Source: Escherichia coli
GTDB lineage: Bacteria; Pseudomonadota; Gammaproteobacteria; Enterobacterales; Enterobacteriaceae
NCBI RefSeq assembly: GCF_017348835.2
Contig: NZ_CP071375.1
DNA length: 64,000 nucleotides
Strand: one strand, 5' to 3'
Part shown: positions 34,321 to 58,204 of the stretch, one piece after another
Numbering within the stretch: position 1 is the stretch's first letter
Layout: each line of letters begins with the position of its first letter
Notes under the pieces: model-generated
Databases searched by the model: none
What the model was told of the DNA's origin: nothing
Seen by the model: only the letters and a program-made list of their open reading frames with translations
Translations under genes and position numbers: made by a program

Positions 34321-37433
<3,113 letters not shown>

Positions 37434-37439
37434 TCACAC

Positions 37440-37469
37440 AACATACGAGCCGGACACATAGAGTGTAAA
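37440..37469 (-). promoter_or_regulatory. lacZ promoter (-10 TATGTT, -35 TTTACA, 18-bp spacer)
   Basis: Hexamers read directly on the minus strand; spacer carries three substitutions relative to K-12 as I recall it. Confidence 0.9.
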
Positions 37470-47829: not shown

Positions 47830-48085
<256 letters not shown>

Positions 48086-50149: not shown

Positions 50150-50983
50150 TCAACGCATATTCAGTTTATTGGCGTGGTAGGCAATATGCTCGCCAATAAA
50201 ACTGGAGACAAAATAATAGCTGTGGTCGTAACCCTCGTGATAACGGATTAACGTCTTGATATTCATCTCCTGGCAGATCTTTTCAAGATTTGGAGTCCGC
50301 AGCTGTTCCGCGTAAAAATCATCACTCAACCCCTGATCAACCATTATTTCCGCAACGCGTTGACCTTGTGAAATAAGACTCACCGGGTCGTAATACAACC
50401 AGGCATCTTTATTTTCACCAAGATATGCAGCAAAGGCTTGCTGTCCCCACGGTACTTGCGATGGGGAGACAATGGGCGAAAACGCCGAGACGCTGACATA
50501 TTCATCTGGGTTACGTAACGCCAACACCAGCGCGCCCAGCCCGCCCATAGAATGACCTGAGATAGACTTTCTGGTCGTTGCCGGAAAATGATGCATCACT
50601 AAATCCGGCAGCTCGTTGCGGATATAGTCATACATTTTGTAATGTTCATTCCACGGCGCTTGCGTCGCGTTCAGGTAAAATCCGGCACCTTGCCCGAGAT
50701 CGTAACGGTCGGCATTTGCGACATGACTGCCTCGCGGACTGGTGTCCGGCGCAACAACAATAATGTTGTGCTCAGCCGCGTAACGCTGCATCCCCGATTT
50801 AGTAATGAAATTCTGCTCATTGCAGGTCAGGCCTGAAAGCCAGTACAGCACCGGCAATTTTTCATTCGCGGCTTTTGGTGGGAGATAGACGCCGACATTC
50901 ATTTCACATTTCAGTGATGCGGAATAATGCCGATACACATTTTGCCAGCCGCCAAAGCTGGCATGTTTTTCAATGAGTTCCAT
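50150..50983 (-). CDS. frmB: S-formylglutathione hydrolase
   Basis: 277 aa esterase with the GHSMGG nucleophile elbow. Confidence 0.92.
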   Translation of the reverse strand: MELIEKHASFGGWQNVYRHYSASLKCEMNVGVYLPPKAANEKLPVLYWLSGLTCNEQNFITKSGMQRYAAEHNIIVVAPDTSPRGSHVANADRYDLGQGAGFYLNATQAPWNEHYKMYDYIRNELPDLVMHHFPATTRKSISGHSMGGLGALVLALRNPDEYVSVSAFSPIVSPSQVPWGQQAFAAYLGENKDAWLYYDPVSLISQGQRVAEIMVDQGLSDDFYAEQLRTPNLEKICQEMNIKTLIRYHEGYDHSYYFVSSFIGEHIAYHANKLNMR

Positions 50984-51075: not shown

Positions 51076-52215
<1,140 letters not shown>

Positions 52216-52219
52216 TCAG

Positions 52220-52495
52220 CTATTTAAGATAGGCACGAACCAGTTCAATAGTGTCGTCAACGGATTGGCTGACTTCGCGGCTGTAGCAGTCATTTCGGTC
52301 AAACGTTTCCCGGATATGGCTTTCAAGCACTTCTGCCATCAGCCCATTAGCCGCGCCCCGAACGGCAGCGATCTGTTGGAGTATGGCACGGCATTCGGCA
52401 TCACTCTCCAGCGACCGTTCCAGAGCATCAATCTGCCCTCGAATACGACGAACTCGAGTAAGGACCTTTTTCTTCTCTTCCGGAGTACTGGGCAT
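52220..52495 (-). CDS. frmR: formaldehyde-responsive repressor (CsoR/RcnR family, 91 aa)
   Basis: ORF 52220..52516; start [30 protein letters not shown] at 52495. Confidence 0.92.
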
Positions 52496-52520
52496 TTCGC
52501 ACCTCATCATCTGCATGCAA

Positions 52521-52571
52521 TATACTATAGGGGGGTATGCTATATGTCAATGCATACCCCCCTATAGTATA
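52521..52571. promoter_or_regulatory. 51-bp palindrome (20-bp perfect arms TATACTATAGGGGGGTATGC / GCATACCCCCCTATAGTATA) upstream of frmR; probable FrmR operator
   Basis: Read directly; 26 bp upstream of the frmR start; G6/C6 tracts typical of CsoR/RcnR-family operators. Confidence 0.75.
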
Positions 52572-52654
52572 TAACACTGGAGAATAATTGTTGTCCGAAG
52601 CCTAACCAGGTGAACGGTCCCTCAAGACAGATGGGGACCGTTTATGTGCTATTT

Positions 52655-53713
52655 TTATGCCGCATCCGCTAAAACAAACATCCCGTAAGGATGGATTTCG
52701 AGGTAATAGTGCTCACCAATATCGGGCTGTAAACGGGTGGCGTTTACTTGTAATAGAATCTCCTGTCCATGCCACTCTACGGTCACTTCGTACTGCGGCC
52801 CCATGTAGGCGACATGGCGAATAACACAACGCTGACTCTCTTCGCCGTGATTGCTTAAGGTGATGGCTTCCGGGCGAACGCCGACGGTGCCGCTACCTTG
52901 CGCCGGGAAATGCGCCGCGCGCGGCAGGCGATAACCGTAGATATCGACATACTCTTCGCTAAAGTTCGCCGGGAACAGGTTGGCGTCGCCCATAAAACTT
53001 GCCATAAATCGGGAGGCTGGCTGACGATAGAGATCCTGCGGTGAGCCAATTTGCATGATGTGACCTTTATTCATCACCAGCACAGTGTCGGACACCGCGA
53101 AAGCTTCACTTTGATCGTGAGTGACGTAGAGCGACGTGATATTAAACTGCTTTTGCAGCTCGCGGATCTTATCGCGCATACTGCGGCGCAGGTTGGCATC
53201 GAGGTTACTTAACGGCTCATCAAACAGCAGCACCTTTGGCTTGAGGATCAACGCGCGGGCCAGTGCCACTCGCTGTTGCTGACCACCGGAAATCTGATCG
53301 ACATAGCGGTCCTCGAAGCCTTCCAGATCCACCATTGCCAGCGCCTCCTTCACCCGCTGTTTCACTTCGCTACGCGAGACGCCAAGCATCTTCAGCCCGT
53401 AGCCAACGTTTTCACCCAGCGACATATGCGGGAACAGAGCGTATGACTGAAACACCATGCAGATATCGCGCTGTTGAATGGAACGATGCGTGACATCTTC
53501 GCCATCAATAAAAATTTGCCCTTCGCTCGGTTTTTCCAGCCCGGCAACCAGACGCAAAATGGTGGTTTTGCCACAGCCGGAAGGACCGAGCAGCGTCACC
53601 ATTTGCCCTTGTGGAATGGTGAGATTGATATTGTCGATAACCGTATTACTGCCGAATCGTTTAGTGACGTTGCGCAGTTCAACAAAATTTTTCTGACTCA
53701 TATTGCGCTCCAT
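52655..53713 (-). CDS. afuC: ABC transporter ATP-binding protein (FbpC/AfuC-like, 352 aa)
   Basis: Walker [10 protein letters not shown], signature ISGGQQQRV, Walker B LLFDEPLS. Confidence 0.85.
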
Positions 53714-55791
53714 TACGCCTGGTTTTTGGCTTTAGAACGGGAGATACGAGCTTCTCCGATCAGCCAGTCAAAGAGGAAAATAATCGCCAGCATCACCACG
53801 ATCAGAATCGAACCATAGGCGATGGCTACGCCATATTCGCCGTCTTCAACGCGGTTAAGAATGTAGGCGGTTGCCACGCGGGTGTCCGGCGTGACGAGAA
53901 AGACGATGGCGCTGACCGTCGTGATGGCCCGCACAAAGCTGTAGATCAGGGCCGAGAGAATGGCCGGACGCAGCAGCGGCAGTAAAATGTGGGTTATGGT
54001 TCGCAAGGAACCCGCGCGCAGGCTGAGTGAGGCTTCATCCAGCGATTTGTCGATCTGCCCCAGACCCGCAATCCCGGCGCGAATACCCACCGGAACGTTA
54101 CGCATCACCATCGAGATAATCACAATTGCCGCCGTTCCGGTGAGATAAACCGGAGCGCTGTTAAAGGCAAGAATATACGAAACGCCCGCCACCGTACCCG
54201 GTACGGCAAAGCACAGCATGGTGGTGAACTCGATGGTCTTTTTGCCTTTGAATTGTTGACGCACCACCACCCAGGCGATGAGCAGGCCAAAGATAGCGGT
54301 AATGGGAGCGGCAATCCCGGCGTAGAGCAGGGTATCCAGCAGTGAAGGCCACGCGCCGTCGCTCATTCCCTGACCAAATAGCTTGATAAAGTTATCCAGC
54401 GTCAGGGTGTAGTCCACGCCCCAGTTCACCGTGAAGCTGCCGTAGAAAATGCTGCCGTAGAGCAGGGCGTTAAAGGCAATCCATATCGCAAGTATGGCGA
54501 CCACGCTCCACACCAGGGTGACCGGTAGCGGCTGGACGTCGCCACGGTAGGATTTGCCGGAAACCGTGACGTAAGAGCGTTTACCAATCCACATATACTG
54601 GATGCAGAACACCAGCAGCGAGAACAGCAGCAGGAAAGCGCCAAGGGTGCTGGCGGCCTGATAATCCAGCTGCGAGCCGGTAATATAGAAGTAAATTTGC
54701 GTCGCCAGTACGTCGAAGTTACCGCCAAGTACCAGCGGGTTACTGAAATCAGCCAGTGACTGTACCACGACGATTAAAAAGGCATTGGCGAGTGCGGGCT
54801 TCAACAACGGCACAAACACGCCGTTAAAGGTTTGCCAGCGGCTGGCGCGCAGGGTGTAGGAGGCCTCTTCCAGCGAGGGATGAATGGTTTTAATGGCCCC
54901 GTCGAGGATCATAAATGCCATTGGCGTGAATGCCAGAACCTGTGCCAGCCAGATCCCGGTAAAACCGTACAGCCAGTTGGTGTTGGTCAGCCCAAACCAC
55001 TCCACCATAAATTCCGTAACATAGCCGGAGCGCCCCATCATGAGCGTCACGCCTAAGCCGACCACAAACGGTGGCGTAACGATGGGCAAAATGGAAAAGA
55101 TGCGACCAATAATGGCGCTGCGTTTAGCGATGCGCGTGGTATAAATCGCCAGCACCAGGCCGAAGAAAGTACAGCCTATCCCCACCGCTATCGACAAGAC
55201 GATAGAGTTGACGATCACCTGAACAATATGTGCCTGCGAGAGCACGGTCATAAACGCCAGCGGGGCGAACTCTCCCGCGTCGTTGGTGAACATCGGGATA
55301 AAAATGGCGATGCTCGGCCAGACGATAAAAATGCCAATCAGCGCCACAATCGCAATCAGTGAGCCGATCACGAAGCGGTCGCCGCCCAGCCATTCGAGGC
55401 GGGTTAAGGCCAGCGTCATAATCGCGCCTAGTTCAACAAACAGCACGATGGCGGCGTAGCCTAAACCGCGTCCAGCCACGGTGGCGCTGATGACGATAAA
55501 CGCCATACAGAGCAATGCCCAGCTGGCATCAAAATAATGACGACTACGCTGTTCGCGTGTGGCCTCACGAAACGGGCGAACCAGCAACAGACTCGGTAAC
55601 AAATACCACAGCCAGCTGATATTAAAATGCGACCAGCCATAAGCCTCGAGGATCTCATCACTCGTGGACTCCAGCAGGCCATAATCGAGGCTCCAGCTCG
55701 GCAACAGTATAAATGCCAGCCAGCCCAGCAAAACCCAAAGGAAAATCGCATCCCGCTTTTTCACGGGATGGAGTGCAAGTGTCTGTGACAT
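53713..55791 (-). CDS. afuB: ABC transporter permease, fused two-domain (FbpB/AfuB-like, 692 aa)
   Basis: 692 aa polytopic ORF with two permease domains; start overlaps afuC. Confidence 0.85.
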
Positions 55792-55859
55792 AGCAGTTCC
55801 GGTATGGTTGGCCGGGGCAGGCGTTTGTGCTGCACCCGGTAAATACGCCTAATGCGGGT

Positions 55860-56891
55860 TTATTTACCCATCTTCACTTCGCTGACCCATTTATTAATCA
55901 ATGCCTTACGAACATCCGTGGAACCATATTTATCCATGTCGTAGTTGATTAATTTCAGGTCGTCGAGCTTCAGCGAATTTGGCGACGTTTCGGCGGTGGT
56001 ATTGGTCAGGATCTGATAAGACTTCCCTTTCTTCCACGCCAGTTCCTGAGCTTCTTTTGATAATACCCAGTCCACAAACAGTTTGGCGTTGTCGAGGTTG
56101 CGCGCGCCTTTCAGAATGCTGACGCCGCCAATTTCGTAGCCCGTACCTTCACACGGGGAAATCAACTCCAGCGGCGCGCCCTGTTCTTTTTCCAGCGAGT
56201 AGTCATGCAGGAAGCCAATACCAATCGCCGTTTCGCCACGGGCGGCGTTACGTGCCGGGGCTATGCCTGATTTGGTGTACTGAGAGACGTTGGCGTTCAG
56301 TTGTTTTAGATAATCAAAGGCCTGATCTTCCCCCCACAGCTGCGCAAAAGTAGCCAGGGCGGTGTAGGCAGTACCGGAACTTTGCGGATCGGCAATTTGA
56401 ATTTCGCCTTTATATTCCGGTTTGGTGAGATCTTTCCAGCACTTCGGCACCGGCAGGTTTTTCTCTTTCAGACGATCGGTGTTTACGCCAAAACCGAGGA
56501 TCCCCACATAAACGGCAGAGGACAGATTCCCTTTCACTTTTGCCGGATCGCGGAATTTCTCCATGATCTGCTCAAGGTTAGGGGATTTATACGCCTGTAG
56601 CAGGCCCATCTCGCCAGCCTGCGATTGCGGGTCTAAAGTGCCGCCGTACCAGACGTCAGCCTGGGGGTTTTTCTTTTCAGCATCGACTTTTGCCAGGGTG
56701 CTTCCGGAACCGTTGCGGATAAACGAGGTTTTTACATCATATTTCTCGCCAAACGCTTTGGTTTCGGCCTCACACATTTCATTGGTGGCGCTGCAATAGA
56801 CCACCAGCCGGCCTTTTGCCTGCGCGGCACCCGTTAAAGTCGCCAGCGCAACGGCAGAAGCAATCAGAGTAGAGGTAAAGGTCATTTTCAT
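55860..56891 (-). CDS. afuA: periplasmic substrate-binding protein (AfuA-like, about 343 aa) with signal peptide
   Basis: ORF 55860..57218 runs antisense through the upstream gene; real start MKMTFTSTLIASAVALATLTGAAQA at 56891, overlapping the upstream gene stop by 4 bp. Confidence 0.8.
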   Translation of the reverse strand: MKMTFTSTLIASAVALATLTGAAQAKGRLVVYCSATNEMCEAETKAFGEKYDVKTSFIRNGSGSTLAKVDAEKKNPQADVWYGGTLDPQSQAGEMGLLQAYKSPNLEQIMEKFRDPAKVKGNLSSAVYVGILGFGVNTDRLKEKNLPVPKCWKDLTKPEYKGEIQIADPQSSGTAYTALATFAQLWGEDQAFDYLKQLNANVSQYTKSGIAPARNAARGETAIGIGFLHDYSLEKEQGAPLELISPCEGTGYEIGGVSILKGARNLDNAKLFVDWVLSKEAQELAWKKGKSYQILTNTTAETSPNSLKLDDLKLINYDMDKYGSTDVRKALINKWVSEVKMGK

Positions 56892-58204
56892 TGTTTTATC
56901 CTTCGAGCGTGAGTGGTGGTGATGCCCGCCATCAGTAACGGCATCAGCAGTAAACCCATAAGTACTGCGGCGACCGAGAGTAAACTGAACATTCCCGGCC
57001 AGCCGTAGCGTTCGATGACCAGCGACAGCGGCCAGCCTGCCAGCGCCGCGCCAAGGTAAGCGAACAGGCCGAGAAATCCGGTGATTGAACCCGCCGCAGC
57101 TTTGTGCCCACACTCCACCGCCGCAAGTCCAATCAGCATTTGTGGGCCAAAGACGAAAAAGCCCACGGTAAAAAAGCACACTGCCAGCAGAGCGTAGTGA
57201 TGAACCGGTGCCAGCCACAGTGCGGCGACTGACACCATCAATCCCAACGTGAACAGCAAAATCATTGGCGCTCGTTGCCCGCTAAACAGCAAATCCGATC
57301 CCCATCCGGCAAATAACGCGCCGAGTAAGCCGCCCACTTCAAACAGCATTACCGTGGCGTTGGCGCTGAGCAGGTTGACACCGTGGCTTTCCGTCAGCCA
57401 GATATTGCCCCAGTCGTTAAGCGCAATCCGGATCACATAAACCAGTACATAAGAGACGCCCAGTATCCAGATCAGCGGATTTTGCAGCATGGTGGTGCGC
57501 AACATTTGCCACAGCCCCATCGGCGGACTTTGTTGTTCCTGACGTAACTCCAGCGGATCGTGACGCCAGTGACCAACTGTCGGTAATCCCTCTTCCTGGG
57601 GCGTGCCTTTGAGTTGTAGTGTTAACCAGATCCCTAATGCCATGCTGATTATCCCCGGTGTCAGCATCGCGGCCTGCCAGCCCCACCAGTGGGCGGCAAA
57701 GGCGCTAATCAGCGGAATAATCGCTCCGCCAATGTTGATCGACATATTCCAGCAGCCCCACCAGAAACCGCGCTCATTGCGTGAGTACCAGTGGGTCAGC
57801 AAGCGGGCACACGGTGGCCATCCCCAACCCTGAAAAAAACCGTTCAGTGTCCAGACCACAAGCAGAAGCGTAAGTGATTCGCCAAAGGCAAACACCACGT
57901 TCAATAACCCGGTGGCGAACAAGCCAACGCCCATAAAACCGCGTTGTCCGTGGCTGTCATGCCACAGTCCGGCGGTAAATTTCGACAATCCGTAGCTGAG
58001 ATAAAACAGCGAACCCAGCAGGCCAATGTCGCCTTTATCCAGTCCGAGGTCGGTTTGTAGCGCCGGAAGGACGTAATTCACGCTTTTTCGCGTCAGATAA
58101 AATGCGGCGTAGCCAATAATCATGCACATCAGCAATCGCGGACGTAATGTCCGGTAGCATTGATTAATTTCTCTCGCTGAACGCGCGTGCATGGTTGTCT
58201 CCAT
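56888..58204 (-). CDS. MFS sugar-phosphate sensor/transporter, UhpC-like (438 aa)
   Basis: High similarity by eye to UhpC (YLTRKS, NGFFQGWGWPPCARLLTHWYSRNERG, DWGNIWLTESHGV). Confidence 0.85.
   Translation of the reverse strand: METTMHARSAREINQCYRTLRPRLLMCMIIGYAAFYLTRKSVNYVLPALQTDLGLDKGDIGLLGSLFYLSYGLSKFTAGLWHDSHGQRGFMGVGLFATGLLNVVFAFGESLTLLLVVWTLNGFFQGWGWPPCARLLTHWYSRNERGFWWGCWNMSINIGGAIIPLISAFAAHWWGWQAAMLTPGIISMALGIWLTLQLKGTPQEEGLPTVGHWRHDPLELRQEQQSPPMGLWQMLRTTMLQNPLIWILGVSYVLVYVIRIALNDWGNIWLTESHGVNLLSANATVMLFEVGGLLGALFAGWGSDLLFSGQRAPMILLFTLGLMVSVAALWLAPVHHYALLAVCFFTVGFFVFGPQMLIGLAAVECGHKAAAGSITGFLGLFAYLGAALAGWPLSLVIERYGWPGMFSLLSVAAVLMGLLLMPLLMAGITTTHARRIKQ

Follow-up and report, generated by a model that had tools for sequence, protein, structure and literature searches.

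What explains an exceptionally long, perfect palindrome with G- and C-tracts placed immediately upstream of frmR, the gene of a formaldehyde-responsive repressor? The DNA analyzed here (the "window", a single stretch of 64 kb) comes from the lac-mhp-yaiL-frmBAR region of the E. coli chromosome. A query of 611 bp matched E. coli strains PE164 and F2_81 at 100% identity, and RefSeq annotates frmA, frmR and fbpC there. We asked what the palindrome contains, where it lies relative to the frm promoter, how far it is conserved, and whether its symmetry has a role of its own.

The palindrome and its operon

An earlier note, made from the letters of the window, had placed two 20-nt arms and an 11-nt spacer at 52521-52571. 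The palindrome and its spacer are as described, but each outer end was drawn one base short. The arms are 21 nt long and 100% complementary (52520-52540, ATATACTATAGGGGGGTATGC; 52552-52572, GCATACCCCCCTATAGTATAT), and the full element reads ATATACTATAGGGGGGTATGC-TATATGTCAAT-GCATACCCCCCTATAGTATAT, with TATATGTCAAT as the 11-nt spacer. The 26 bp that the note counted to the frmR start is about right from its own coordinate; 24 bp lie between 52520 and the A of the ATG (52495). The features of the locus, with predicted elements marked as such, are:

50150-50983, minus strand: frmB, S-formylglutathione hydrolase (TIGR02821, 395 bits; K-12 gene order)
51076-52185, minus strand: frmA, S-(hydroxymethyl)glutathione dehydrogenase (TIGR02818, 743 bits; RefSeq annotation)
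52220-52495, minus strand: frmR, 91 aa, start MPSTPEEK, first gene of frmRAB (RefSeq annotation)
52520-52572, minus strand: whole palindrome, 53 bp (21-nt arms plus 11-nt spacer), very probably the bipartite FrmR operator overlapping the frm promoter (Pfrm)
52522-52538, minus strand: proximal FrmR site, ATACCCCCCTATAGTAT on the frmR strand, between the -35 and the transcription start and overlapping the -10
52522-52527, minus strand: predicted -10 hexamer TAGTAT, inside the proximal arm (alternative TATAGT at 52529-52524)
52545-52550, minus strand: -35 hexamer TTGACA of Pfrm, within the central spacer of the palindrome
52554-52570, minus strand: distal FrmR site, ATACTATAGGGGGGTAT on the frmR strand and ATACCCCCCTATAGTAT on the plus strand, upstream of the -35; conserved in Escherichia and in two-site relatives

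The description of the palindrome as long and perfect was accurate: among perfect inverted repeats with loops of up to 30 nt it ranks first in the 64-kb window. By our own arithmetic, about 1e-7 to 1e-6 perfect inverted repeats of 21 nt are expected by chance per 64 kb; the palindrome cannot be a chance match. The runner-up in the same ranking is a REP-like repeat with 14-nt arms (47864-47908, CTTATCCGGCCTAC), and the third-longest, with 13-nt arms, lies in the lac operator region (37406-37440).

The gene downstream of the palindrome encodes FrmR. Its product scores 188 bits against the NCBIfam FrmR equivalog NF008464 (cutoff 133) and 68.6 bits against the RcnR equivalog (cutoff 138), and so is not RcnR; it also matches PF02583 (82.9 bits). 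Pro2, Cys35 and His60, the residues with sensor roles in FrmR (PMC5146963), are all present in the translation. The genes that follow, frmA and frmB, encode glutathione-dependent formaldehyde detoxification.

Two FrmR sites around one promoter

Each arm of the palindrome holds one 17-bp unit of the form ATAC-N9-GTAT with a G6 or a C6 tract. These two units are the only matches to ATAC-N9-GTAT in the 64 kb, and the same search gave no further sites that would point to a wider FrmR regulon within the window. Both units have the sequence and the position by which type I sites of the CsoR/RcnR family are defined (PMC5146963). Their G6 (52530-52535) and C6 (52557-52562) tracts fall within the 3-8 bp given for the G/C tract, each tract is flanked by ATAC...GTAT with ATA-G6-TAT nested inside, and the element lies 24 bp upstream of a CsoR/RcnR-family gene, frmR, over the predicted -35 and -10. 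The shorter 12-bp ATA-G6-TAT was considered as the core inverted repeat and rejected, the cross-species matrix preferring ATAC(T)-N-(A)GTAT with the C-run off-centre.

The distal and proximal sites are mirror copies of one another, and 32 bp, or about three helical turns, separate their centres. The element appears as a long perfect palindrome because each site mirrors the other right through its asymmetric centre (TATAG plus the G-tract); the long palindrome is thus a by-product of two mirrored sites. The earlier note had called the length unusual for an operator, a view we do not share, because the element reads as two 17-bp sites plus a spacer that carries the -35.

A consensus scan of 52400-52760 found a single sigma-70-like promoter, on the minus strand (TTGACA, 17 nt, TAGTAT; 10/12 positions), with a predicted transcription start at ~52515-52518. 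Its -35 is in the spacer of the palindrome and its -10 in the proximal arm, in agreement with the note's proposal that the operator overlaps the frmRAB promoter. The -35 is bracketed by both FrmR sites and the -10 is covered by the proximal one; this is the geometry needed by a repressor that excludes RNA polymerase. Previous work put the centre of the palindrome at -29 relative to a start that was predicted, not mapped (Denby 2016, PMC5146963).

Three in-frame ATGs (52516, 52510 and 52507, minus strand) precede the annotated frmR start and would give a 98-aa ORF; the first of them (52516) falls within the predicted transcription-start region. They are presumably unused, because the extended protein would be without the free N-terminal Pro2 required for formaldehyde sensing.

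The feature itself is already known: a paper of 2016 contains the element, its interpretation by tandem type I sites and the proposal of two tetramers. In it, Denby et al. (Sci Rep 6:38879, PMC5146963, Fig. 6a) identified tandem type I FrmR sites in a 'large inverted repeat' of E. coli Pfrm and modelled two FrmR tetramers on the repeat, with both faces of one tetramer engaging the two sites as the alternative. The earlier note's suggestion that more than one tetramer binds agrees with that model. In bio-layer interferometry, EcFrmR bound the whole Pfrm fragment and not the control PydhY, and formaldehyde sped up dissociation; Pro2-Cys35 methylene bridges widen the DNA-binding face from ~35 Å to ~45 Å (PMC5146963). 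For Salmonella, a C6 site with T/A-rich inverted repeat flanks was found to bind two tetramers, and mutation of one flanking repeat abolished FrmR binding (Osman 2015, 2016).

When the two ATAC-N9-GTAT sites were set around the -35 of promoter J23100, the result was full FrmR-dependent repression with 40-fold induction (PMC11127321, 2024). In the same study, one of two hybrid promoters gave no response, and repression was lost when the native promoter was shortened, even though both sites were still present. These failures suggest that the sites may need flanking DNA or adequate FrmR dosage. In the literature that we covered, we found no footprint, single-site mutagenesis or mapped start for the E. 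coli operator.

We conclude that the palindrome is very probably the operator of an auto-regulated frmRAB promoter, made up of two 17-bp type I CsoR/RcnR-family sites of the form ATAC-N9-GTAT. This conclusion draws on the anatomy of the element, its overlap with the promoter, the recurrence of the site in other species and the identification of the regulator as FrmR, while FrmR binding to Pfrm and its release by formaldehyde are taken from PMC5146963 and FrmR control through transplanted sites from PMC11127321. The earlier note had named the palindrome as the FrmR operator, and that assignment is upheld by the FrmR equivalog downstream (188 bits against a cutoff of 133), by the presence of ATAC-N9-GTAT ahead of frmR in 65 of the 80 species compared, and by PMC5146963. 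When formaldehyde is absent, FrmR tetramers would sit on the sites and deny RNA polymerase access to the frmRAB promoter. Formaldehyde would then cross-link Pro2 to Cys35 between subunits, widening the DNA-binding face; FrmR would leave the DNA and frmRAB would be transcribed. We infer which protein surface contacts which base, as well as the stoichiometry on the E. coli operator.

The closest named system is the K-12 Pfrm operator (PMC5146963), which is the same element at the same locus and position, with the same ATAC/GTAT repeats, G/C-rich N9 centres and a -35 in the spacer. It differs at one base: K-12 has T in place of the window's G at 52539, immediately next to the ATAC-N9-GTAT core, and its perfect arms are 19 nt instead of 21 nt. 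The distance between site centres is 32 bp as measured here and 31 as stated in PMC5146963.

The RcnR operator (rcnR-rcnA) resembles the frm operator in having a PF02583 repressor, G6 tracts with short AT-rich inverted repeats, and two sites per promoter. As quoted in PMC5146963 from Iwig and Chivers 2009, it consists of two TACT-G6-N-AGTA type I sites (TACTGGGGGGNAGTA) with centres 19 bp apart. These half-sites and their spacing, TACT-N7-AGTA, are contained in the cross-species FrmR consensus ATACTCCCCTATAGTAT. The RcnR operator differs from the present one in its centre distance (19 vs 32 bp), in controlling divergent genes, and in responding to Ni and Co rather than formaldehyde. Salmonella Typhimurium frmRA (Osman 2015, 2016) is like E. 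coli in having a C6 tract and a T/A-rich inverted repeat upstream of frmR, and tetramers that are released by formaldehyde. In contrast to E. coli, the description there is of a single C6 site (Osman 2016), two tetramers binding to a probe of 33 bp, and the promoter was called 'distinct' by the authors; the two FrmR proteins are 52% identical, the genomic location is another one, and frmB is absent.

Distribution of the site and of the palindrome

For comparison across species we used 80 frmR loci, one genome per species, with FrmR proteins of 52-99% identity. An exact ATAC-N9-GTAT occurs in the 160 bp upstream of frmR for 65 of these 80 species, as against an average of 0.24 in shuffled upstream regions and a rate of 0.002 per 160 bp elsewhere in these loci. 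These 65 species contribute 62 distinct exact-match promoter sequences, in which ATAC/GTAT is invariant. The E. coli proximal arm differs from the proximal-site consensus (ATACTCCCCTATAGTAT) at one position.

The majority of species, including alpha- and beta-proteobacteria, Xanthomonadales, Tatumella and Actinobacillus, have a single site abutting TTGAC, without the long palindrome. Nearly all promoters with two sites have TTGAC between them; in Aeromonas and Deefgea the element there is TTGAT or TTGCA. The two sites are spaced 32 bp apart in Escherichia and in Deefgea, and 33 bp apart in Erwinia endophytica. A clade with FrmR at 84-91% identity, which includes plasmid-borne cassettes, likewise has two sites, spaced 34-35 bp apart, with the tract GTGGAG/CTCCAC and not G6/C6; its arms are perfect over 18-21 nt in three loci (L010, L011 and L019) and have 1-4 mismatches in the others. 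The two sites of Erwinia endophytica are direct repeats, with 2 mismatches when read directly vs 7 when read as inverted.

The single-site majority and the direct repeats of Erwinia endophytica therefore identify the 17-bp site as the conserved functional unit. Two sites around the -35 are, on this comparison of promoters, an elaboration of certain lineages, and even two-site promoters do not all show strict mirror symmetry. According to the earlier note, absence of the palindrome from other frmRAB promoters would speak against its reading. What is conserved is the 17-bp site, most species having no long palindrome; this refutes the idea that the palindrome as such is required, without refuting that of an FrmR operator. 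The comparison thus places the published element in a wider context, with the 17-bp site as the conserved unit across proteobacteria and the long palindrome as a lineage-specific form that is dispensable for FrmR control elsewhere. The sites already serve as parts of formaldehyde and methylglyoxal biosensors, and the conservation and allele data could be used for engineering Pfrm variants and for predicting FrmR regulons.

Plasmid-borne frmR-frmA cassettes of Enterobacterales (e.g., on Edwardsiella anguillarum plasmid 1) share with E. coli two mirrored ATAC-N9-GTAT sites, TTGAC between them, and an FrmR that is 90% identical. They differ in the GTGGAG/CTCCAC tract, in centres 34 bp apart, in perfect arms of 18-21 nt and in a 17-nt spacer. 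The Edwardsiella anguillarum copy (L010:2380-2780) has a perfect palindrome of its own, TATACTATAGTGGAGTAT-N17-ATACTCCACTATAGTATA. This plasmid-borne frmR with its palindrome was found on 487 PLSDB plasmids, mostly conjugative (257 of them at ≥99% identity), with Klebsiella, Enterobacter, Citrobacter, Escherichia, Salmonella and others as hosts, and near-identical copies occur in chromosomal contigs of unrelated genera (L011, L019). Three further loci from unrelated genera (L007, L008 and L012; Klebsiella grimontii, a Citrobacter freundii MAG and Maribrevibacterium harenarium) have a nearly identical frmR promoter, in which the distal unit is ATAC-N10-GTAT (10-nt centre) and TTGAT lies between the sites. 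The sequence similarity suggests horizontal spread of a further frm cassette, one whose operator is a variant.

Within E. coli, a 111-bp block with the palindrome is present in 5411 of 5426 genomes, whatever the upstream gene. The exact palindrome of the window is the majority allele (3551 of 5363 genomes), as counted with a 61-nt query for which ≥99% identity was taken as the window form; 1813 genomes had at least one difference. K-12 and about a third of E. coli genomes have at least one mismatch in the palindrome. Among the sampled E. coli and E. albertii variants, changes in one arm have no compensating change in the other. The C6 tract of E. coli 201609 (L084) is interrupted in the proximal arm alone (CCCCTC), E. 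coli 2012C-4227 (L086) has TTAACA in place of the -35 TTGACA, plus other changes, and an E. albertii locus (L002) has ATACTCCCC in the proximal arm. The two E. coli promoter variants may alter frmRAB expression.

One natural genome, E. coli FJ_Ec_21 (L083; NZ_CP143627.1:3528745-3528877), has a K-12-type allele in which the inner 15 nt, corresponding to 52539-52553 of the window, are inverted (GCATTGACATATAGA to TCTATATGTCAATGC). The inversion lies between 19-nt perfect arms, so that the -35/-10 core faces away from frmR, which no longer has a -35. A search with the FJ_Ec_21 allele found the flipped form in 1 of 5415 E. coli genomes, and the flip is either a real arm-mediated inversion or an assembly error. 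This count led us to reject an invertible promoter switch in favour of a rare event or a fault of assembly.

Upstream of frmR, and on its strand, lies a gene for an fbpC-type ABC ATPase, where K-12 has yaiO. This gene is part of an fbpC-type ABC transporter operon within 52587-57218 (minus strand), whose ORFs encode the ATPase (52655-53713), a permease of 692 aa (53713-55791) and a binding protein (from 55860). The flank is shared by only 450 of 5426 E. coli genomes, O157:H7 strains among them. Homology between fbpC-type and yaiO-type flanks ends ~17-20 bp upstream of the distal arm. At 52613-52642, in the gap that separates the fbpC stop codon from the frm promoter, is a perfect 9-bp stem (AACGGTCCC/GGGACCGTT) with a loop of 12 nt; it is followed by no U-run on the minus strand and by a T-rich tail on the plus strand, and it is absent from K-12, where the sequence is different.

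Other explanations of the symmetry

Could the palindrome have been selected for its structure, as a supercoil-dependent cruciform or as an RNA hairpin that acts as a terminator or insulator against read-through from fbpC, with FrmR binding secondary? As single-stranded DNA the element does form a 21-bp stem of -22.2 kcal/mol (z = -7.2 vs shuffles). The exact inversion of the inner 15 nt in FJ_Ec_21 suggests that the arms can pair or recombine. The Escherichia and plasmid clades have different tract sequences, each mirrored in both arms, but such mirrored changes are also expected if both arms bind the same protein. The 11-nt loop holds a consensus -35, and a loop of this length disfavours cruciform extrusion. 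An RNA hairpin is hard to reconcile with the lack of a U-run after the stem on the minus strand, and with the predicted start, which lies downstream and would leave the palindrome untranscribed. Most species run frmR control with one site and without the long palindrome, the two sites of Erwinia endophytica are in direct orientation, and the arm-breaking variants of E. coli and E. albertii are uncompensated. Neither the terminator scan nor Rfam indicated an intrinsic terminator or a structured RNA at the palindrome; the Rfam scan of 52200-52800 gave only sub-threshold matches to miRNA hairpins (20-27 bits vs gathering scores of 73-90). The palindrome was also rejected as a terminator for the fbpC operon, as it has no U-run and the sole terminator-like match of the scan is inside the fbpC coding region (52693-52679). 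A selected cruciform or hairpin function is unlikely, and selection for structure with FrmR binding as a secondary feature is very improbable. The cruciform-prone structure raised in the earlier note finds no support as a function, given the -35 in the spacer, the uncompensated E. coli variants and the direct sites of one two-site species.

It is extremely improbable that the palindrome is a recombination or mobile-element repeat at the edge of a variable region, without regulatory function. Such a repeat would account for the end of flank homology so near the distal arm, and for the related palindrome that accompanies frmR on hundreds of conjugative plasmids. However, in every context the palindrome keeps a fixed distance to frmR and is never separated from the gene by the breakpoint; there is one copy per genome and no second one in the window, and promoter hexamers lie within it. 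The core motif is also found upstream of frmR in distant proteobacteria with unrelated flanks. We give as little credence to a mirror symmetry that serves a second, divergent promoter or another regulator, the distal arm then having a role unrelated to FrmR. The distal arm does contain the mirrored TATAGT/TAGTAT on the plus strand, and a full promoter core reads outward in the genome with the flipped spacer. Yet the normal allele has no plus-strand match to a -35, and the promoter scan found a promoter on the minus strand only. Whether the upstream gene is fbpC or yaiO, it is co-oriented with frmR and leaves nothing for a divergent promoter to drive; moreover, both transplanted sites work as FrmR sites (PMC11127321).

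The FrmR operator, with its two 17-bp sites, accommodates one further possibility, which we consider doubtful: the mirror symmetry, including that of the non-symmetric centres, may be no accident. It could be an elaboration, limited to Escherichia and the plasmid-borne frm clade, that helps FrmR to form a higher-order complex of two-fold symmetry with the DNA around the -35. Along the lines speculated on by Denby et al., such a complex could consist of two cooperating tetramers, or of a single tetramer engaged through both its faces. The same mirror symmetry also allows inversion of the spacer to re-orient the core promoter, as seen in the FJ_Ec_21 genome.
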